Assembly: GCA_963721685.1 (NCBI GenBank)
Contig: CAVRJJ010000001.1
Coordinates: 303,950 to 367,949, forward strand
Direction: 5' to 3'
Length of the DNA stretch: 64,000 nt
Source: an uncultured bacterium
GTDB taxonomy: Bacteria > Patescibacteriota > Saccharimonadia > UBA4664 > SCTI01
A model generated the notes under the pieces. That model saw only the letters and a list, made by a program, of their open reading frames with translations. It had not been told where the DNA came from and searched no databases. This document shows, piece after piece, positions 29,725 to 53,244 of this stretch. Positions within the stretch are counted from its first letter, which is position 1. Every line of letters begins with the position of its first letter. The position numbers and the translations under genes are program-made.

Positions 29725-30892
29725 CTACCGCTTTAATTCCTGCAGCGCACGGTCCAACTGTGGATCGCGGCCAGCGCTAAAGTCCTCAGGCGTTTGTTTA
29801 ACTTCAATGTCCGGCTTGATCCCAACCTTATCAATACCCTTGCCGCTGGGAGTAAACCAATGGGCTACGGTAATTTTAACCTGGGCACCGCCATCCAACT
29901 TTATTACTTCTTGGACACTGCCTTTGCCAAAACTCTTTTCGCCAATAAGCTTGGCCTTGATGTTATCACGTAACGCCCCCGCCACAATTTCACTTGCCGA
30001 TGCGCTGCCGCCATTAATTAATACCACTACCGGCAGCCCTTCAAGCGCCCCATTACCGGTACTGGTAAGTTTCGTCTGGCTGCGGCCATTCTTGCGTTCA
30101 TCCACTACCACCTTGCCCGCCGGTACAAACTGGCTTACCACGTCTACCGCCGCCGACAAGTAGCCGCCCGGATCATTTCGGACATCCAATACAATTCCCT
30201 TTACTCCCTGGGCTTTAAGCTCGCTAGCAGCCTTATTCATTTTTTCCGAGGTGTCGTCGCCAAAGGTAGAAATTTTAATATAACCAATACCGCCTTCTTT
30301 CATGCTCCAGGTCACACTTGGTACATCAATAACCTCCCGGGTAATCGTTAAGCTCCAACGGTTGGTTGCTGCCGCGTAGTACCGTTAAGGTTACCTTGGT
30401 ACCGGCCTTGCCCCGGATCTTTGCGACCGCTTCGTCGACGGTGTAGGAGGAAGTATCTTTTTTATTAATTCCGGCAATATAATCCCCGGCACGTAAACCG
30501 GCTTTTTCAGCTGGCGCTCCGGCAATCGGGGAAATTACGGTGAGCTTGTTGTTTCGAATACCGATTTCCGCGCCAATACCCGAAAGGGTGCCGCTTAACT
30601 GGTCCTGCAAATCCTTAGCGTCTGAGGCATCCAAGTAAACCGTGTAGGGGTCCCCGGTGGAGCTTATTAAACCGGCCCGGGCTCCATCCAAGACTTTAGC
30701 GCTATCGATTTTACCGTCATACCGGCGTTGCAACAAATCGTAGGTATCGTTTAAGCTTTCAAAATCCAAAGGCTGATGCCCAATTGACCAGGTATGAGGA
30801 ATGACTTTAGGCGCGGCTTGGCCGCCTACAAAAGCAATACCGGCAACCAGTATCGGCACAATAAGCCCTAATTTACGACCGCGTCGCTCCAA
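29725..30892 (-). CDS. C-terminal processing (S41, Ctp/Prc-like) peptidase. Its PDZ domain (30326-30892) and S41 catalytic domain (29725-30315) are in different frames, a +1 frameshift near 30345-30352.
   Basis: One frame gives PDZ (GIGAEIGIRNNKLTVISPIAGAPAEKAGLRAGDYI). The other gives S41 (IGYIKISTF...VLINGGSASASEIVAGAL...EKSFGKGSVQ). Confidence 0.8.
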
Positions 30893-30915
30893 TGTTCCTC
30901 CTGACTTTGCTTACA

Positions 30916-35250: not shown

Positions 35251-36335
35251 TTAGGCACCGATTTGGCTGCTTAAGTAAGCGTCAATAAACGGTTCAAGGT
35301 CGCCATTTAATACCATTTCGGCCTGGGAGGTCTCGTGTTTGGTGCGATGATCCTTCACTTTAGTGTAAGGATGAAGCACATACGAGCGAATCTGGTTCCC
35401 CCACTCGGCGCTCATGACCGGGCCGCGCAGCTTGCTCAACTCTTCTTGTTGCTGCTCGAGCATGAGCGCCGTAAGCCGGGCTTTTAAGATAGCCATCGCC
35501 TTCTCTTTATTTTGTAGCTGCGAGCGTTCGTTTTGGATCGCCACGACGGTACCGGTTGGAACATGCGTGATCCGCACCGCCGAATCAGTGGTATTAACAC
35601 TTTGGCCGCCATGGCCGCCGGAACGGTAGACATCAATCCGCAACTCTTTTTCATCCACCTCAAACTCCTCAGGATGCTCCAACTGCGGCACCACATCCAC
35701 CAACGCAAAGCTGGTTTGGCGTAAGTTATCGGAGTTAAAGGGACTTAGCCGCACCAAACGGTGCACACCTTTTTCACTTTTGAGTTTGCCGTAAGCGTAC
35801 GCGCCGGCCACTTCAACGGTGACACTCTTAAGGCCAGCCTCTTCCCCATCGGAACGATCAATAATATCGGTGTGCCACTTTTGGCGTTCGGCAAAGCGCA
35901 GATACATCCGCAATAGCATCTCCGCCCAGTCTTGGGCGTCAGTCCCCCCGGTACCGGCGTGGATCGACAGGATTGCCGAGCTACGGTCGTGGTTGCCGGA
36001 CAGCTTCAGCTCGAACTCGCGATCGCTGTAAAGTTCCTGTAGGCGCTCAAGGTTTGCCTGCAGATCCGGTTGCATACTGACATCATTCAGCTCGGCCAGC
36101 TCGCGCGCCATAATAATATCCTGATGCAACTGGTTCCAGCCCTCGCTATGGCTTTTGAGCCCGGCCGCCTCCTGGCTGATTTTGGCGGCCGCGGTTGGAT
36201 CATCCCAAAAATTAGGTTCGGCCATCGTTTATCAAGTTCTTTTAAACGCGTTTGTTCAGCGGCTAGACCAAGCCGCTCCATCGCGGTTTCAACCCGCAGC
36301 TGTAAATCATGCAATTGTTTAGCGGTAGCGTCCAT
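35251..36335 (-). CDS. prfB: Peptide chain release factor 2, with a -1 frame discontinuity near 36226-36232 between the N-terminal 37 codons (ORF 36087..36335) and the main ORF.
   Basis: An SPF motif (VRLSPFNSDN) and GGQ are present. N-terminal fragment MDATAKQLHDLQLRVETAMERLGLAAEQTRLKELDKR joins MAEPNFWDDP only by a -1 shift. No CUU-UGA autoregulatory site is present. Confidence 0.8.
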
Positions 36336-36439: not shown

Positions 36440-36988
36440 TCATTTTTTATTTTCCACATACTCCAGCTTCTTTTTATTAACTGAAACAAAATCGAAGTAA
36501 GTTGGATATTTATTTAAAAGTTGAGAATAATTTACTTTATTAGGGATAAGAATGGTGCCCAATTTTTCTTTCTCATAGAGGTATTCGTAAAGGCTTAGGA
36601 AGTCTCCGTCACCCGATACAATTACAGCCTTATCGTAATTATCAATTTCTCTGGCAGCAGCGTAGAGCACGAGGTCCGTATCGACGTTTCCCTTGACCTT
36701 CGTCTTGCCTTCCCCGTCTTTGAATGATGTTGTTGGCTTTAGTACAACGACATAACCCGCGCGTTGCAGATAGGCATACAGTCCTTCATTGCCGGGCAAG
36801 TTGCCAATAAATAAAAATGCTTCCTCAACCTTATATTTATCCTTCAAGAAACGACGAAATTTTTCAAAATCAAGCTTCCATCCCGTATAAACTTTTCTTC
36901 CATGTCGAGTAATGTCTTCCCCCACTCCCATATTGAGGTTTTGGCTATCGATGAAGGCATATACCTTTACATGTGCAGTTTTAGACAT
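36440..36988 (-). CDS. NYN/LabA-like (PIN-fold) nuclease domain protein.
   Basis: VYAFIDSQNL...NVDTDLV...IVSGDGDF is a LabA/NYN signature. The gene sits in local AT-rich DNA. Confidence 0.65.
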   Translation of the reverse strand: MSKTAHVKVYAFIDSQNLNMGVGEDITRHGRKVYTGWKLDFEKFRRFLKDKYKVEEAFLFIGNLPGNEGLYAYLQRAGYVVVLKPTTSFKDGEGKTKVKGNVDTDLVLYAAAREIDNYDKAVIVSGDGDFLSLYEYLYEKEKLGTILIPNKVNYSQLLNKYPTYFDFVSVNKKKLEYVENKK

Positions 36989-37142: not shown

Positions 37143-37998
37143 TTATTCTCGGTTAAGCAGTTTATCGGCCAAAGCCTTCTTACTGCGGCGATAGGCTACG
37201 ACGGCGTAACCAAGGGCACCGGTACCGGCCATACCAGCCAAAGCGGCTTCAGGACCAGTCTCAGGAAGAGCAACCGGAGTTACCGGAGTCGCGGGAGGCG
37301 TTACCGGAGGGGTAGGAGGGGTTAGGAGGGGTAACCGGAGGGGTAACCGGAGCACTAACCTTAACTTTAAAGGTCACGTCCGCGATGTAGTGGAAACAGC
37401 CCGGGATTAACCCGTTGAGGCTGTCATAACCAAGCAATGTACCTTTGGTAACATCGCCCAGGATAGCACCGTTAACGGCGCCTTTACTGGCAATACGGGC
37501 AGAGCCAGGAACAACGCTGACTTTTACCTTACCATCGCTGGTAACGTTGGTGTCATCGAAGATGGTTCCGGGAGTAGCGTTCGAAGCCGAAATGTGGCCG
37601 CGAATGTTAGTGGAGCCATTAACTTCACTGGGCATATCTACCTTTAAAGTAGTGTTTTTAGCGTTCAGCTTTTCTGGATCGCTTGTCTGGGCAGGATCGG
37701 CGTTGTTGTGCACATACGCGCGAACTTCATATTCTTGGCCGGCAACTAATTTCACCGAGTCAGAATAAGCACCGCCAACTTGACGAATCGTTAAGAAGTT
37801 ACGTTCATCACCATATTGGGGGGTGTTGGTAAATGAGTTGAACTGGACATGGCCAGGACCACCACAAACACCGGTGATAGAACCACAGTTGAAGGTGGGA
37901 CGATCAGGACCAAAAGCGGCAAATGCCGTCATCGGCACCGCTAAGGTCATGGCAGCTACCGCGCTAACGGCAACTCCCTTTTTAAATTTTGCATTCAT
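37143..37998 (-). CDS. Sortase-anchored surface protein (signal peptide, Ig-like/adhesin body, PT-repeat stalk, LPETG + TM + RRSKK sorting signal). A +1 frameshift sits inside the PT-repeat stalk near 37285-37300.
   Basis: A 245-aa ORF ends ...VTPPVTPPNPSY... and an overlapping 70-aa ORF supplies ...TPPVTPPATPVTPVALPETGPEAALAGMAGTGALGYAVVAYRRSKK. The junction lies in GGTAACCGGAGG tandem repeats. Confidence 0.75.
37261..37345. repeat. Tandem GGTAACCGGAGG(G)-type repeats encoding the Pro/Thr/Val linker of the LPETG protein.
   Basis: The repeats are seen directly: gttaccggaggggtaggaggggttaggaggggtaaccggaggggtaaccggag. Confidence 0.7.
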
Positions 37999-38228
37999 AG
38001 TATCTTTCTCCTTTGCCGTTTAAGGCAAAATTACTTAATCACACGTGTTAGTAAGTTATCGGGTTGGGCCGCGAATTGTGAAAGGACACTCTCTGCATGA
38101 GAGGCCTGACAGCTGGATAGTCATAGATGTTCAAGTCGGACACCCGACCAAGTCTGCTCTTAAGTCCCCGAAGGGTAAAAAGAGTCTTACGACTTGGCCG
38201 GATGGACCCGACTATTGCTGGTTGATGT

Positions 38229-39200
38229 TCACCGTGGCCGGTCGGCGCCCGAGCTCGCCGGGGGATCCCGGTTGAAGACCTTCCGCACGATGCGGAGCTT
38301 CTTCTTCGAGCACTCGAACTTGCCGGTAACCGTCACGGTCTTGTTGCCGTAGGGACGGGCGCCATGTCCACGGAAGTCACCGGCACGAATGACCCACTTG
38401 AAGGGCCTGCCGTACTGAGTGGCTCCGAACTGGCGTCCGTCGACCTTCAGCTTCACCTGCGTCAGGTAGCGGGTTCCCGCTCCCTTCAGACGAAAGGTGA
38501 TGGTTCCGCGCGGGCTCTTGGGAGCCTGATGCGGGGTCCATACGAGCTTCACGGCTCCGCGCCTGTCGACGCACTTCGTCGTCCTCTTCGGCTTCGGCTT
38601 GGCCTTGGCCTTCGGAGTTGGAGTGGTGGTCGTCGGCGGGAGGCCCGGCGGGTGCGCGATGTACGTGTTGCACGAGTTGTTCGTGCAGTAGTTGGTGCAC
38701 GAGTACTTCGTGCAGATCTCGGTGTTGCACGACTGCACCGCGCAGTTGACCTGCGTGTTGCACGAGTCGCCAACGCACTTCACCGTGTCACCCGGAGGGG
38801 GCGGCGGCGGTGGGGGCGGCGGCGGGGGCGGCGGCGGTGGTGGCGGCGGCGGCGGAGTGCCGGGCTGCTTCGCACAGACGAACGCGCCCGCGTTGTACGT
38901 GATGTTGACCTCGGGGAACGAGTAGCTCTTCTCGAAGATGAGCTCCGAGTAGTAGTTGGTCTTCATCTCGTACCGCAGCGTGGTGTTGTACTCGTTGTTC
39001 GGTCCCGGGTACGTCCCCAGCTCGTCGGCCCTCAGAAGGAGGCCGGTGCGGTTGGGGTTGCCGGCATACGTCGGCGCGGGCGACCCGTCGGGACACGTCG
39101 AGGCCATGGCCACGGGTGCCGCGAAGAGCATCATGGCAAGGGCCATGAGCACGATCGCGATCCTCGCGACCGGATTGGTCTTACGGGTACGGCGGGTCAT
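38229..39200 (-). CDS. Secreted protein with signal peptide, a 22-residue poly-proline tract, Cys-rich SCNT/CT(K/N)Y micro-repeats and a Lys-rich segment. It is the cargo of the GC-rich element.
   Basis: ATG at 39200 is preceded by an AGGAGG RBS 7 nt upstream. The N-terminus MTRRTRKTNPVARIAIVLMALAMMLFAAPVAMA is a signal peptide. The track ORF start (39437) is a read-through of the terminal repeat. Confidence 0.65.
   Translation of the reverse strand: MTRRTRKTNPVARIAIVLMALAMMLFAAPVAMASTCPDGSPAPTYAGNPNRTGLLLRADELGTYPGPNNEYNTTLRYEMKTNYYSELIFEKSYSFPEVNITYNAGAFVCAKQPGTPPPPPPPPPPPPPPPPPPPPPGDTVKCVGDSCNTQVNCAVQSCNTEICTKYSCTNYCTNNSCNTYIAHPPGLPPTTTTPTPKAKAKPKPKRTTKCVDRRGAVKLVWTPHQAPKSPRGTITFRLKGAGTRYLTQVKLKVDGRQFGATQYGRPFKWVIRAGDFRGHGARPYGNKTVTVTGKFECSKKKLRIVRKVFNRDPPASSGADRPR
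38795..38858. repeat. GGC/GGG simple-sequence repeat encoding the poly-Pro tract (reverse strand).
   Basis: ggggcggcggcggtgggggcggcggcgggggcggcggcggtggtggcggcggcggcgg. Confidence 0.8.
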
Positions 39201-39646
39201 TCCAGACCTCCTGGTCGGTAAATGGAGCAACGTGGCTCCAGAATCCCCAATGCACTCATGAGAGTACACTAGTCCTGATCGTCCACGTTGCAGGGCGATG
39301 GTCAGGATCCTACCGATGTTGCGTAATTGGCGCAGCAACATGAGCAGAGTCCTGACCATCAAATAACCGATATCCAGAAAACCTGTAGCAATAGTCGGAA
39401 TTGGGTCTTGAAGACCCATGACTATCCAGCTTGTCAAAGTTCCCTATGAAAGACCGGCTGGTTTCCACCTCACCTACGTCTCGCAGAGTAATGACACGTA
39501 ATATATCATGCTTATGCAATTTTGTCAAGGAGTTGATGGTAAAATGTCTATGATTTATGATCAGATTAGGCGATCTGGAGATTATTGCTTATGCAAAATA
39601 CCGAATTATCTATTGGGAATATGCCTAAAAGATAGCGCTTTAGGCG

Positions 39647-40549
39647 TTATGTCTTAAATAGAAAGCTTTGGAGTATCTGATAATACTCCTCTGGCATCGC
39701 GTGAACAGACAGATGCTTGTAGTCGTACTCCGGGTCAGGGAACTCAAAGCGCTCCAGTTCAGGGTAATTACCAGTCCCCCGCGCCATCACCATGGCCTCC
39801 CGGCACTCCTGTATCTCCCCCACGCACTCGAAGGGCTTATGTCCTTCTATTCCGAGTAACTCGCGATAGGTGTGATCCAGATCGGGTTTCTCAAAAAGGT
39901 TTTCGCCATTAAATAGTTCCATCAGATCAACCTTGGGTGCAAACGGAGCAAATATGAGGTACACAAAAGCGCATTTCGGACATTCGCCACACCAGGTAAG
40001 CCCCTCTTTATGACTAAGGCTAAAGTTACGGTTACAGGAGCTAAATGTACCCTGGTACTGCTCAAGCCAGTTGGTGGTAAAAAGCTCGGCAATCCGCAGT
40101 TCACTTAAGGGGCGCAAAAAAGAAAAATAGTGAATATCGGGAGATATGTTTAATCTCACGTACTCCTGAAAATCGCGCTCAAACTCCAGGGTTTTTGAAT
40201 ACTGGTGGTTTACCGATATCTCCTGATAATCCAGGTTGCCTTCACCGGCTGAAGATTCATTGGAGAGGGCTATATGCCGGTTTCCGGTTAAAATGGCGCT
40301 CACCACGGAAGCGAACGCCAGATAGGCCGAGATGGGAACGTGGCCGTTATAGGCACCTTTGGCGTTAAGATCCTTCAGCTTGGAGTCAAGTGTACGTTCA
40401 ACCTGAAGATGCGACTTCCCGATCTGATCAATCTGGGGTTTAAGTTGTTCGGCATGGTTAATGGTCCAGCTGGTGAACTGCTGATTGGAGGATGCCAGGA
40501 TTCCGGCAGTGGTTAACGAGTCCTTACCGCCGCCAATCGGTACTATCAA
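39647..40549 (-). CDS. QueC-family PP-loop ATP pyrophosphatase-like protein with a CGECPKC zinc ribbon and a roughly 80-aa C-terminal extension. It is a lone gene with a TTG or unresolved start.
   Basis: PP-loop GGGKDS is present. Compare GHVPISAYLAFASV with QueC VPGRNLVFLSFA, and SSCNRNF...TWCGECPKC with QueC C...CGECPAC. It lies in AT-rich DNA with no queD/queE/queF nearby. Confidence 0.55.
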   Translation of the reverse strand: MIVPIGGGKDSLTTAGILASSNQQFTSWTINHAEQLKPQIDQIGKSHLQVERTLDSKLKDLNAKGAYNGHVPISAYLAFASVVSAILTGNRHIALSNESSAGEGNLDYQEISVNHQYSKTLEFERDFQEYVRLNISPDIHYFSFLRPLSELRIAELFTTNWLEQYQGTFSSCNRNFSLSHKEGLTWCGECPKCAFVYLIFAPFAPKVDLMELFNGENLFEKPDLDHTYRELLGIEGHKPFECVGEIQECREAMVMARGTGNYPELERFEFPDPEYDYKHLSVHAMPEEYYQILQSFLFKT

Positions 40550-40669
40550 CCCATTGCCATAGGAGGATTGCGGATTGGACTGGATCTTCGGGTCTACTGG
40601 AAAGGAGCAAGCTTATCGGGACTTAGCTGGTTTTTGACTAGAAACTCCCCTAGTCCTTGTCGGTAGAGC

Positions 40670-40945
40670 TTATTGAAGAAACTTGGCTTGCTGCTGGTTC
40701 AATCCCTGGCCCTTAATGATGATCTGGGGCGCCAGATAAGCCTTAAAGTAGGAAATGCCGCCGACCAACCATAACCCGCGTACGGCGTTTTCGAGGACTA
40801 TAGGATTAAGGCCGTAGTAAGGATCCCCGTCAGCTTTAAGTGTTTCCGTAAAGTGCAACTCTCCATCATAGGAGTAGCGTAAATGTAAGGTTTGCTCTGT
40901 CTGGTTAAAGTCGTACCCCTCAAAAATAAAGGCTCTGATAGGTTT
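40670..40945 (-). CDS. Small ORF (about 91 codons) in the same frame as, and immediately after, the murD stop codon. It has no ATG and a possible TTG start at 40858.
   Basis: The frame stays open from the murD TGA onward: KPIRAFIFEGYDFNQTEQTLHLRYSYDGELHFTETLKADGDPYYGLNPIVLENAVRGLWLVGGISYFKAYLAPQIIIKGQGLNQQQAKFLQ*. Confidence 0.25.
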   Translation of the reverse strand, partial: KPIRAFIFEGYDFNQTEQTLHLRYSYDGELHFTETLKADGDPYYGLNPIVLENAVRGLWLVGGISYFKAYLAPQIIIKGQGLNQQQAKFLQ

Positions 40946-42250
40946 TCACGACGTTTTCACAAGGTCGTGGACGGCTGCCTTGAAATGGTCGCCGCGCTCA
41001 CTAAAGTTCTTAAACATATCAAAGCTGGAGGTTCCCGGTGAAAGCAGCACCACGTCACCTGGTTTGGCTTGTTTACGCGCCAGCTTCACGATATCGCTCA
41101 TCTTCGAAGGGCCTAAGCTGTAGTTGCTGTAGTCCGCCTTGTCTAGGGCTTCAGTGATCTGATGCGAAACTGCCCCTATCACGATAACGTTTCGAACGTT
41201 AGCTATGCCTACCTCGCGGGCGATACCATCATAGCTGAGGCCTTTGTCGAATCCTCCTAAAATTAGTACTTTAGGCTCAGTAAAGGCCTGGATAGCGGCG
41301 ATGGTAGCACCAGGACTGGAAGAGTAGGAATCGTTGATGTAGGTGGCTTCATCAATAACCGCCACCTTCTCTAGCCGGTGCTCCAACCCAGCGAAATGCC
41401 TAATAGCCTGCTTTATCGGATGGGGATCCTTAATGATTGGCCAAACCGCGGTGATGGCGGCGCAGACATTATCCCAGTTATGACGGCCAGCCAGGGCAAT
41501 ATCTGTGACTGAGCAGATAGTGGTGTCCCCTATTTTTACCGTATCGCCATCTATAAAGGCGCCATCGGTGGAGTTATAGGCGGTTTGATCAGCCGGGGCG
41601 CCTAAGCCGCTTTGCAGAGAATACAGGTTGCAGGCATTGAACACCGCGCGGTCACCCGGTTTCTGGTGGGTAAAGATCATTTGCTTGGCTCTCAAGTACT
41701 CATGCATATCCGGATGCCAATTCAGATGGTCCGGAGCGATCATCAGCATTACCGCCACGTGGGGGCTGTATCTGATATCAATCAATTGGAAACTTGATAG
41801 CTCCAAAACCACCCAATCTTCTGGTTTAACCTGGTCTAAAAAGTCCAGAGGTGGGTGGCCAATGTTGCCCCCCAGATGGACGGTGCGTCCGGACGCTTCA
41901 AGCATCTTAGCAATCAAGGAGGCGGTAGTGCCCTTACCTTTAGAGCCGGTCACCCCAATTACCTTGGCCGGACAGTTCCCAAGAAACTCATTGGTCCCCG
42001 AGGTAATTTTAGCTGTGTCCAGATTGGGGTTGGCCTGGAGGAGCGCTTGGGGGCGGATACCCGGAGTGCGGACAACCAGATCATATTGATCCAAGCTCTT
42101 GAGATAATCAGCTCCCAAATGGGAGTCGACGTCTTTTGGCAACATTTGCTCAGTGTTTTCATCATGAATGCAGATCTGATGCCCCAGATCGTGCCAATAG
42201 GTGTACGCGGACTTACCTTCCACCCCATAGCCAACAATCGCAACTTTCAT
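40946..42250 (-). CDS. murD: UDP-N-acetylmuramoylalanine--D-glutamate ligase MurD.
   Basis: Mur ligase motifs (GVTGSKGKGTT, DxSSFQL). Confidence 0.9.
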   Translation of the reverse strand: MKVAIVGYGVEGKSAYTYWHDLGHQICIHDENTEQMLPKDVDSHLGADYLKSLDQYDLVVRTPGIRPQALLQANPNLDTAKITSGTNEFLGNCPAKVIGVTGSKGKGTTASLIAKMLEASGRTVHLGGNIGHPPLDFLDQVKPEDWVVLELSSFQLIDIRYSPHVAVMLMIAPDHLNWHPDMHEYLRAKQMIFTHQKPGDRAVFNACNLYSLQSGLGAPADQTAYNSTDGAFIDGDTVKIGDTTICSVTDIALAGRHNWDNVCAAITAVWPIIKDPHPIKQAIRHFAGLEHRLEKVAVIDEATYINDSYSSSPGATIAAIQAFTEPKVLILGGFDKGLSYDGIAREVGIANVRNVIVIGAVSHQITEALDKADYSNYSLGPSKMSDIVKLARKQAKPGDVVLLSPGTSSFDMFKNFSERGDHFKAAVHDLVKTS

Positions 42251-46695: not shown

Positions 46696-47926
46696 TCAGC
46701 CGTACTTCGCCATGCCCGCAGGGCATTGTATTTCAGAGCAACCGCACCACATAGATATGCGGGTGGGCCTCCAGCTCTGTGACCAACTCGTCCGGTACGC
46801 GTTCGTTGAGATCGAAGACCGAGTAGGCCAACTCGTCCTTTGAGACGTTCCCCATGTCCTCGATGTTGAGCTCCGTACTTGGCGATGATCGCGGTGAGCT
46901 CGCTCAGTATGCCTTCCGTCGTTGGCGTGGACGATGGTCAGCCGATGCTCGGAAGCCCGCGACAGAACGAGATCGGGCAGGTTGACAGCATTCCTGACGT
47001 TGCCATGTTCGGCGAAATCGATCAACTGTCGCGCAGCCATGACCGAACAGGCCGCTTCCGCCTCGGCGGTGGAACCACCGATGTGCGGCGAGACCACCAC
47101 GCAGGCATGACCCGCTAGTGCCTGCATCCGGTAGGTCGGTGAGATACCTCCCCACCTTGCCAGCATTGAGCGCGTCGATCAGTGGTTCCGTCTGAACCAA
47201 CTGTGCCCGAGCCGTGTTCACGAGCATCACGCCCGTCTTCATGAGCTCGAACTCGCGCGGGCCAATCATGGCGTCGGTCCGCGGTCCGCCAGGTACGTGC
47301 AGCGACACCACGTCGCTGCGGCGAAGCAACTCGCTCGAGGCTGTCAACGAGTTCAACGCCCACGTACTCGAGGAACTCGCGAGCATCAGCGCTGATCCCC
47401 GGGTCGTACCCGAGGACGTTCATACGCAATCCGGCATGAGCTCGAATGGCCACCCATCGCCCGATATTGCCGAGACCGACAACGCCAAGCGTCCGATGGC
47501 GCAGCTCGAAACCGGCAAAACGCTTCTTGTCTTTTTCTGCGCTGGACCGGAAAGCCGTCGTCAGTGCCGTGTTCGGCGACATAGGCGAAGGCTTCGGCGA
47601 GCTTGCGCGCCCCGATCGTAATGAGTCCCAGCGTGTGTTCCACCACTCCGTTGGCGTTAGCGCCGGGGGTGTTTGGACGCCACCACACCTCGCTGGCTCA
47701 AGACAGCGAGAGGGAGGTTGTCGACACCGGTTCCAGCGCGGGCAAGCGCGATGACGCTTGCGGGCACCATCTCCGGCACCTCAAGGTATCCGCGATATGA
47801 GCGCAGCAGGATCAACAGCGGGTTAGGTTCCCGCTGGTCAGGATCGCAGGTGTACCCCGCGTCCCTCAGCAACTGCAAGCCGTCACGACCGATTTCATTG
47901 TGAAGACGTACGATCATTCCCCTCAC
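46696..47926 (-). pseudogene. Decayed D-3-phosphoglycerate dehydrogenase / D-isomer 2-hydroxyacid dehydrogenase (serA-like) gene in at least 5 frame-fragments on GC-rich (about 62%) DNA.
   Basis: Overlapping minus ORFs carry a PGDH N-terminal domain, a GxGxxG NAD site (VGLGNIG), ESDVVSLHVP...LMK...LVNTAR and HIGGSTAEA motifs in different frames. Confidence 0.65.
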
Positions 47927-50708: not shown

Positions 50709-52744
50709 CTACTTTACGCAGCCGCCAGGACGGCTGAAACACCACTGCAGTGTTTCGCGGACAGCCGGCGCGGCATATTGGGCGCCTTCGCCAGAATTCT
50801 GGATTAGAACTACCATTTCAATTTGAGGATCATCGTAGGGCGCAAAAGCCGTAAACCACGCGTGTGGCTTACGTTTTCCGTTGGGATCGGTTTCAGCCGT
50901 GCCGGTTTTTGCGGCCACCGCCACTGGCACCGATTCTTCAATTTTGCAGCACGCGGTACCGTAAGGCCGGTTCACCACCTCGCGCATAGCCCGTTTAACA
51001 AGGTTTAAATGGCTGGCCTCAATAAAGTTCTCATCCTGAATTTTTACTTGTGCCGAGCGGGTAACCACACCATTATCGCCAGTCAATTCCTTAAAGAAAT
51101 GCGGCTCGATGACTTTTCCCCCGTTCGCGATCGCGGCCTCAGCAACCGCCATTTGCAGTGGTGAGGCCAGCAAGTCGCCTTGCCCAATCGAAATATTATA
51201 GGTATCACCCACGGTCCAAGGTTCGCCGCTGAACTTTTGTTTCCACTCGGGCGTAGGAATCCGTCCGGCGGTCTTTTCCGGAAGGTCAATGGCGGGCAGC
51301 TTGCCTAAGGCCAAATTTATTGTAGTAGGTGGTTAGCTTGGAGACACCGAGACCGGCAATATTCCCATAACCGCCGCCGACCGTGTAAAAGAAGACATCC
51401 GAACTGACAGCGATGGCTTTTGATAAGTTTACCGCGCCATGCCCGCCCGGATCATACGAACGGTAGGTATATTTAATGGACGGGTCATACTTATTGGTTA
51501 TAACAATTGAACCAGTATCGTTAACGGTGGTATTGGGGCTAATTGCCCGCTCCTGAAGCGCCGCCGAACCAATCAGCGGTTTAATAATCGATCCAACGGG
51601 ATATGCTCCGGCAATGGCTTTGTTGAAAAGTGGTTGCGCGGCATTCTTCACTAGCTTTTGGTAATCTTCCTGCCCAATACCCCGCGCGAACAGGTTGTTA
51701 TCGTACCCCGGCAGGTTAACCACCGCCAATACTTCGCCGTTTTTTGGGTTAAGGGCAACTCCTGAAGCCTGGGACGCGCCGCTGGCCTGCATTTGGGCCT
51801 TAATGGCATCGGTAAGCTTATGCTGCAGCTCCATATCAATAGTTAAGGTTAAATTAGCCCCGGCTTTGGCCGGGCGTGAAGCCAGCAGCTTTATAGGCCG
51901 ACCAGCGGCATCAACTTCGGTCTGTTCAATCCCATTCTGGCCTTTTAGCAAATGCTCATACTGCTTCTCGATCCCCAGTTTTCCAATAAAATCGGTGGAC
52001 TTATAGTTAGGGTCGGCATCAAGGTCAGCCTGGCTCACCCGGCCGGTGTAACCCAGTATGGCCGAAAGCGTATCGTCGTTATACTGGCGGATTGGGTTGG
52101 TATCCAAGCTAAATCCCGGGAGCGAACCTGAGGCCTGGTCAAAGGCTAGCCATCGGTCCCGTTCAACATTACTTGCCACTAGACGCGCCTGAGGGTTCCG
52201 TAAGCAAGCAGCCAGTGCAACTTCAGGCTTTTTACGGCCGGCTATTTCGGCCGCTTGGCACTCTCCTTCTGCCTTAGCCGCTACGTCAGACGCGGGAACC
52301 CCCAGAAAGCCCTCCTACCGTGCTATAGAGCCGCTGCCGGGCCGCAGAATCGGTTTGGGGCAGTAGACTTGGTGTAACGGTAATGTCCACACTGGCTAAG
52401 TTTTCCGCCAAGACTGCTTTGTTACGGTCATAGATTATACCGCGCGGGGCCCGGGTGACCTTTTCGCGCAAGCGGTTGCCGTCCGCCAATCCCAAATTGC
52501 GCTGGCCTTGAACCAGCTGAAGGTGCGCGAGTTGGGCAATCAGAATTAAGGCCCCCAACACAACCAGCACAGCTACTATTACTAGCGGGCGCTTGCTCGT
52601 GGGGGTTTCAATTACACCGGCCGCGGCATCGGCCGGCAATATCGCGTCCGCCCACTGCTCGTGGCCCCCTTGGTCGCGTTTGATAGTAACCCGATCCTTT
52701 TGGGGATGTGCCTCGCCGCCATACCCAAACAACGATTTGCTCAC
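50709..52744 (-). CDS. mrdA: Penicillin-binding protein 2 (elongasome transpeptidase) split into three frame-fragments (52286-52744, 51286-52179, 50709-51314). There are two +1 frameshifts, near 52298-52311 and 51294-51300.
   Basis: Fragments carry the N-terminal TM/pedestal, the middle region (SIIKP = SxxK) and the C-terminus (KTGTAE) in order. The middle fragment's frame is open across the first stop, and the third fragment starts at TTG inside the second. Confidence 0.8.
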
Positions 52745-53244
52745 CGCAGCTCTTCCCGTGCTAGTTTCTGAAGAAGCGGATGCTTGGACTGAATAAGCAA
52801 GCGTAGCCCGTAAACGGCTATAGTCATTACAGAGGTCATGAGGACGTTTACACCTGCACGTTCGGCAATCACCCGGGATACACCGGTTTTGAGCGTTGCC
52901 ACCACCGCCGCATCATACAAAAGGGTAGCAAGTGCTACCAGCGCGAGAGCTGAAATGAATGAGTCGGCCTGCAAGCCTAGCTGCCGCCCGGCAATAATAG
53001 CTAATGAAACAACCACAAAAAAAGCTATCCGCAAGCCAAAATCGCTGCCGCTTGCCATATCAAGAAGGAGCCCGCCGCCAATCGCAGCCGCCAAACTGGA
53101 GGTCGCGGTTCCCCACAAGCTAATCAGAACCACCACTATCACCATGAGGCTAGGCATAACTCCGAAAGGCCGCATCGACCCAAACAGCGATACTTGCAGT
53201 CCAGCGGTGATAATAATAAGCAAAGCCCCCCCCAGGAATTTCAT
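52741..53244 (-). CDS. mreD: Rod shape-determining protein MreD.
   Basis: Small polytopic membrane protein between mreC and mrdA. Confidence 0.65.
   Translation of the reverse strand: MKFLGGALLIIITAGLQVSLFGSMRPFGVMPSLMVIVVVLISLWGTATSSLAAAIGGGLLLDMASGSDFGLRIAFFVVVSLAIIAGRQLGLQADSFISALALVALATLLYDAAVVATLKTGVSRVIAERAGVNVLMTSVMTIAVYGLRLLIQSKHPLLQKLAREELR

Follow-up and report, generated by a model that had tools for sequence, protein, structure and literature searches.

A QueC-like open reading frame as the 3' two-thirds of a Saccharibacteria-type murL gene that is broken as assembled, most likely by consensus errors

What is the function of a QueC-like open reading frame (ORF) that lies, with no que genes beside it, in the 64-kb stretch of DNA analysed here (the window)? 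In the ORF listing of the window it spans 39647..40549 on the minus strand, encodes 300 aa from a TTG start, begins with MIVPIGGGKDS and also contains VPISAYLAFAS and WCGECPKC (39971..39994). The initial annotation had pointed to the motifs GGGKDS, VPISAYLAFAS and CGECPKC, all of which are present, and had read the ORF as a stand-alone QueC paralogue recruited to DNA modification or anti-phage defence rather than to queuosine synthesis. Judged by its sequence, the ORF is real gene sequence, far beyond chance. A database search returned more than 8000 homologues, the best non-self match having an E-value of 1.8e-129; this nearest relative shares only 65% identity with the ORF product, and the product's cluster has a single member. 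Nearly all of the 8000+ matches are 425-440 aa long, and their hosts are mainly Saccharibacteria and other Patescibacteria; JGI names some of them MurL. The public names of the homologues disagree (P0018, P0112, P0098): NCBI uses "endonuclease domain-containing protein", JGI also assigns "7-cyano-7-deazaguanine synthase", and the majority of the rest are labelled "hypothetical".

The sole family match of the ORF in NCBIfam was NF041275 (E 2.9e-77, profile positions 141-392 of 447), which describes MurL, the UDP-N-acetyl-alpha-D-muramoyl-L-alanyl-L-glutamate epimerase. A 62-aa ORF further upstream (40670..40858) matched positions 55-97 of the same model, and when the stretch following murD was translated in the reading frame that the 300-aa ORF uses, with two in-frame TAA codons read through, one continuous match was obtained (positions 7-392 of 447, E 4.3e-91). 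The score of 305 bits is far below the equivalog cut-off of this Xanthomonadales model (700 bits), and equivalence of function therefore rests on context and not on the curated threshold. The Pfam scan of the ORF gave a chance match to ApoO and nothing relevant, and the two MurL Pfam entries listed for the homologues, PF26298 and PF26299, were absent from it. The QueC models PF06508 and TIGR00364 had no match at E-values up to 1 in Pfam and NCBIfam, which agrees with the earlier view that queuosine synthesis is not involved. A PDB sequence search with the repaired MurL gave no match at E-values up to 10. The gene belongs to the known MurL family, as a Saccharibacteria-type member that is broken as assembled; in our judgement the likely account is that the ORF makes up the 3' two-thirds of murL, with three breaks introduced as consensus errors of the assembly.

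The front of the gene was located by a frame map and by tblastn with three homologues (P0002, P0003 and P0007). The features are as follows.

39647..40949, minus strand: the whole murL gene, matched by NF041275 and covered over residues 1-430 by tblastn with the three homologues.
40938..40949, minus strand: the start piece, GTG AAA ACC TAT (MKTY), its GTG overlapping the murD stop (GTGA).
40679..40936, minus strand: the N-terminal segment RAFIFEGYDF...QQQAKF, in the same frame as the 300-aa ORF.
40600..40677, minus strand: the segment FNKLYRQGLGEFLVKNQLSPDKLAPF (FNKLYRQ...KLAPF), which comes after one extra base near 40678 and is found in the +1 frame only, with two TAA stops in the main frame.
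40600 down to 39647, minus strand: PVDPK...GGGKDS with the remainder of the 300-aa ORF, after one missing base near 40600.
39647..40549, minus strand: the 300-aa ORF, comprising the PP-loop core and the C-terminal helical part of MurL (residues ~134-433).

By the frame map and tblastn, murL has no uninterrupted reading frame as assembled: in addition to the breaks near 40678 and 40600 there is an extra base near 40937, and all three breaks, each a 1-nt indel, lie within the first ~350 nt of the gene. The N-terminal ~133 residues of MurL, which the 300-aa ORF lacks, are encoded in the upstream 400 nt across three frames; the ORF looks stand-alone, and about 300 aa long, only because three single-base errors, most likely of the assembly, break the front of murL. 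MurL homologues start with MKTY(K/R)(E/Q)F in the tblastn alignments, and on this sequence evidence the true start of murL is the GTG at 40949..40947, which overlaps the murD TGA. The TTG encodes an internal Leu, within the strand preceding the PP-loop; the start that had been left unresolved earlier is explained by the GTG. No ribosome-binding site was seen before the TTG on reading the sequence, and the 300-aa fragment alone, without the N-terminal domain and without an evident ribosome-binding site, would be inactive.

The pieces of the broken front retain the features of the family. The segment at 40679..40936 holds the conserved residues F9, Y25, D28, F33, G64, S66, Y67 and K69, and the peptide FFNKLYRQGLGEFLVKNQLSPDKLAPF in the other frame formed a second tblastn HSP in which 29 of 50 aligned positions were identical to P0003. 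Because this conserved peptide sits in the other frame, both TAA codons result from the shift in frame and are neither nonsense mutations nor recoding; stop-codon reassignment in murL was ruled out on the same ground. The repaired MurL keeps all 65 of the residues conserved at 95% or more among 116 homologues, the shifted segment included, and it deviates at 9 of the 80%-conserved columns, compared with a median of 8 for the homologues. The C-terminal stretch of roughly 80 aa that had been regarded as an extra extension turned out to be a conserved part of the family, with at least 95% conservation at G348, L357, G366, K371, P372, C375, G377, E378, E381, A385 and P419. In the organism itself, MurL is probably a normal protein of 433 aa.

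The gene neighbourhood is that of a cell-wall gene, and two further features are needed here.

40946..42250, minus strand: a murD-type ligase gene directly upstream of murL (TIGR01087, 344.6 bits).
37143..39437, minus strand: genes for the Pro-rich protein and the LPXTG-type (secreted) protein.

The gene order secA-murD-murL matches that of Saccharibacteria relatives, in which MurL is encoded by one intact ORF of 425-470 aa, and the closest relative (L001) shows this order with the same 4-nt stop/start overlap between murD and murL. Among 80 related loci, MurL was contained in a single ORF except in two that are cut by contig ends, and it was always located beside a MurD homologue or fused with one. 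L003 encodes a MurD-MurL fusion of 899 aa, and L052, L070 and L075 encode MurL-MurD fusions; such fusions provide independent support for functional coupling. In all, fusion ORFs of 700-900 aa, in either order, were seen in L003, L045, L052, L053, L070 and L075, and the fusion-bearing loci come from several Patescibacteria and proteobacterial MAGs.

Downstream of murL lie the genes for the Pro-rich protein, the LPXTG-type surface protein and an NYN-domain protein (36440..36988). The Pro-rich protein has 402 aa with a 22-residue poly-Pro run; its DNA has a GC content of 0.61 and carries a 285-aa antisense ORF. Neither it nor the LPXTG-type protein had a match in Pfam or PADLOC. The tRNA and Rfam scans detected no tRNA gene and no Rfam family in the whole window; in most Saccharibacteria relatives (L007-L046) a tRNA-Lys(CTT) gene is found ~1-3 kb downstream of murL, and its position in the window is taken by the GC-rich surface-protein genes and the NYN-domain gene. 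The ORF had been described as lying on AT-rich DNA next to a mobile cassette. The GC content of the 39-41 kb region, however, is 0.51 and 0.49, against a window mean of about 0.51, and the neighbours are murD and the three downstream genes just named, with no transposase or integrase identified among those tested. The immediate neighbours that were tested also included no Qat, Dpd or CBASS partner, and PADLOC gave no relevant match for the ORF or the repaired protein, contrary to what a DpdC- or QatC-type paralogue would have led one to expect.

That the ORF product is a PP-loop protein which belongs structurally to the QueC clade, with a Cys cluster resembling that of QueC, was borne out by structure prediction and profile alignment. 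Two motifs are central.

40517..40534, minus strand: the PP-loop motif GGGKDS (ATP pyrophosphatase signature), which aligns to QueC SGGQDS.
39971..40036, minus strand: the Cys cluster C172...C187-x2-C190-x2-C193 (SSCNRNF...WCGECPKC), a putative Zn site resembling that of QueC.

The AF2 model of the 300-aa ORF had a pLDDT of 95.2, and that of the full-length homologue P0003 a pLDDT of 96.5 and a pTM of 0.94. In a Foldseek search against the PDB, QueC ranked first (2pg3, E 6e-7; 3bl5, TM 0.66), and the fold neighbours of the ORF include QueC, Cap9 and YcfA. Alignment of the family profile with E. coli QueC by hhalign (probability 51%, E 1.6e-4) paired GGGKDS with SGGQDS and SSC...WCGECPKC with TCY...CGHCAAC. 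G-G-K-D-S is invariant in 114 sequences, as are C190 and C193, and C172 and C187 are conserved in at least 90% of them; the invariant residues of the N-terminal domain include Y25, G64, S66, Y67, F90 and G98. The core of MurL is a QueC/Cap9-type PP-loop domain, with both the PP-loop and the Cys cluster of the QueC fold in place.

MurL requires one ATP, forms AMP and acts in the L-to-D direction only; it has been said to "lack known conserved domains", and adenylation of the Glu alpha-carboxylate has been proposed (PMC8788868). In the alternative D-glutamate route of peptidoglycan synthesis MurL acts second, inverting the terminal L-Glu of the cell-wall precursor to D-Glu at the expense of one ATP converted to AMP. 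The enzyme comprises an N-terminal domain of ~130 residues and a PP-loop domain of the QueC type, in which four Cys residues probably form a zinc site. The analogy with QueC makes adenylation of the Glu alpha-carboxylate the most likely role of the PP-loop domain; this step would render the C-alpha proton more acidic, which could then be exchanged by direct deprotonation or through an oxazolone, and the D-epimer would be freed when the adenylate is hydrolysed. QueC activates a carboxylate with ATP, and for this reason the QueC-like fold supports adenylation as the first step of MurL, the QueC/Cap9-type core thereby lending support to the proposed mechanism. A literature search for a link between MurL and the PP-loop or QueC yielded nothing relevant.

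The partner ligase has an unusual feature. Xanthomonas MurD2 carries E197 and R358 where E. coli MurD has D182 and K348, and the E197D/R358K double mutant of the Xanthomonas enzyme becomes a D-Glu ligase (PMC8788868). At the positions aligned with E. coli D182 and K348, the MurD of the window carries D (IAPDHL) and K (GGFDKGLS), and the E/R pair of the L-Glu-specific MurD2 is absent, which is a feature of the partner and not of MurL itself. Among 66 MurL-linked MurDs of the related loci, E was found in 54, R in 61 and the D+K combination in none. The D/K pair may be neutral in this lineage or may reflect a relaxed or changed stereospecificity; if the ligase used D-Glu, MurL would be dispensable.

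Breaks of the same kind occur elsewhere in the window. About 14 were found in the 64 kb, of which 12 consist of one extra base and 2 of one missing base; three are in murL, two in the PBP2 gene, one in the Ctp gene, six in the PGDH-like gene, one in the LPXTG protein gene and one in prfB. Outside murL, the affected genes are as follows.

50712..52912, minus strand: PBP2/MrdA, in three ORFs, with single extra bases near 52308 and 51309.
46736..47917, minus strand: a PGDH-like dehydrogenase gene, read in frames 0-1-2-0-1-2-0.
37143..37998, minus strand: the LPXTG surface protein, with one +1 break and the LPETG sorting signal in another frame.
35251..36335, minus strand: prfB (RF2), in two frames, the change lying between ...KELDKR and MAEPNFWDD at about 36228.
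29728..30910, minus strand: a Ctp/Prc S41 C-terminal processing peptidase, in two pieces, with an extra base near 30349.

When the pieces were stitched, PBP2 matched TIGR03423 with 530 bits over positions 3-591 of 593, passing the cut-off of 455, with its SxxK and KTG motifs intact; Ctp matched TIGR00225 with 344 bits (cut-off 218.6); and the PGDH-like protein gave one continuous profile match (positions 84-408 of 410). The frame sequence of the PGDH-like gene implies six +1 shifts in 1.2 kb, in a GC-rich segment (0.61) of which every piece is still well conserved. The frame change in prfB looks like one missing base, and the canonical CTTTGAC recoding site is absent there. Ten further genes of the window, including those for YvcK, LysRS, GreA, ProRS and RseP, are intact or without a family match, and murD, secA, serS, lysS, proS and others are free of breaks. 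Most break junctions lie outside runs of three or more bases, and homopolymer slippage was ruled out as the cause of the indels on this basis. A link of the indels to AGCT sites, through possible methylation-related miscalls, was also considered and dropped: 4 of 7 junctions were within 16 nt of an AGCT, a weak result by a rough estimate (nominal p ~0.02), and the positions are imprecise.

We regard consensus or assembly error as the best explanation of the breaks, and as a probable one. Consensus errors are the most likely cause because the ~14 breaks, nearly all of which consist of a single extra base, fall in genes whose conservation is otherwise perfect. The predominance of insertions (12:2), the presence of breaks in essential and otherwise pristine genes and the lack of substitution-level decay all point to an artefact. 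The clustering of the breaks, with three within 340 nt of murL and six in the PGDH-like gene, counts against it, since real pseudogenes show such clustering within genes, whereas errors scattered uniformly at random would not be expected to do so; the D/K pair of the adjacent MurD also points away from an artefact.

The alternative that survives best, although we consider it unlikely, is that murL is a real and very recent pseudogene, with the D/K-bearing MurD now ligating D-Glu directly or with D-Glu supplied by a host, so that the epimerase would have become superfluous and would be decaying. The D+K pair is unique to the window MurD among 67 MurL-linked MurDs (the 66 relatives and the window), and the residues concerned are those whose exchange turned Xanthomonas MurD2 into a D-Glu ligase (PMC8788868). 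Moreover, murL carries three lesions next to clean neighbours, and the window copy is exceptional in that MurL is intact in all 78 relatives not cut by a contig end. However, none of the 65 invariant residues is changed, whereas a gene old enough to have acquired three indels should show roughly 2-3 changes, and PBP2, Ctp, prfB and other genes carry the same kind of single-base break. Bacterial mutation has a deletion bias, and the 12:2 insertion excess runs in the opposite direction. In addition, D alone (L001, L003, L033 and L064) or K alone (L010 and L034) occurs alongside an intact MurL. The more specific proposal that the three murL lesions are real and that the ligase beside it has gone back from the L-Glu specificity of MurD2 to the use of D-Glu, as its unique D/K pair would suggest, strikes us as improbable. 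If it were true, the locus would represent a natural abandonment of the MurD2/MurL bypass in a host-dependent Saccharibacterium that obtains D-Glu from elsewhere.

Programmed frameshifting, in which the ribosome would shift +1, +1 and -1 to make a full-length MurL, would account for the recovery of a perfectly conserved protein by three shifts, but we think it very improbable. The junctions have no slippery motif in common. In Ctp and PBP2 the stop of the zero frame comes 7-8 codons after the junction, so that a stop-triggered shift would delete conserved residues. Moreover, none of the 78 relatives with a MurL not cut by a contig end needs such shifts, and it is implausible that a single PGDH-like gene would be read with six +1 shifts in succession. 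The weakest reading, to which we give almost no credence, is that of a stand-alone QueC paralogue with a DpdC-like role in DNA modification or a QatC/Cap9-like role in anti-phage defence, for which the fold neighbours QueC, Cap9 and YcfA could be cited, against which stand the strong MurL match with an N-terminal domain encoded upstream, the conserved murD linkage with gene fusions in relatives, and the negative QueC-model, PADLOC and partner-gene results given above.

The locus matters mainly as a correction: the QueC-like "orphan", which resembled a gene for defence or DNA modification, is a fragment of a housekeeping gene for the cell wall. The assembly around murL contains many single-base frame errors on this reading, which will mislead gene calls. 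The MurD2/MurL route appears to be usual in Saccharibacteria and many other Patescibacteria, groups that are absent from the list of MurL hosts in a review (PMC8788868). A literature search for MurD2 together with Saccharibacteria or Patescibacteria returned no mention of MurD2 in any of the top-ranked matches.

Among known systems, the closest is the epimerase MurL (XOO_1319) of Xanthomonas oryzae (Feng et al. 2017, reviewed in PMC8788868). The window protein shares with it full-length collinear homology (profile positions 7-392 of 447, E 4.3e-91) and the linkage to a MurD-type ligase, and its PP-loop fits the ATP-to-AMP requirement. It differs in scoring 305 bits against the Xanthomonadales equivalog cut-off of 700, in being broken as assembled and in having a partner MurD with D/K and not E/R; its host is also of the Saccharibacteria type, which is not among the MurL hosts of the review (PMC8788868). 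In Devosia murL precedes murD2, whereas in the window murD precedes murL. QueC (7-cyano-7-deazaguanine synthase; PDB 3bl5 and 2pg3) shares only 15-20% identity with the window MurL, which has in addition the N-terminal domain of ~130 residues and a C-terminal helical part of ~100 residues, has UDP-muramyl dipeptide as its substrate and has no que genes nearby. Cap9 of CBASS (PDB 9nto) and QatC-type proteins have PADLOC profiles and defence partner genes that have no counterpart at this locus; unlike them, the window gene is found in a housekeeping cell-wall context that is kept across hundreds of genomes.
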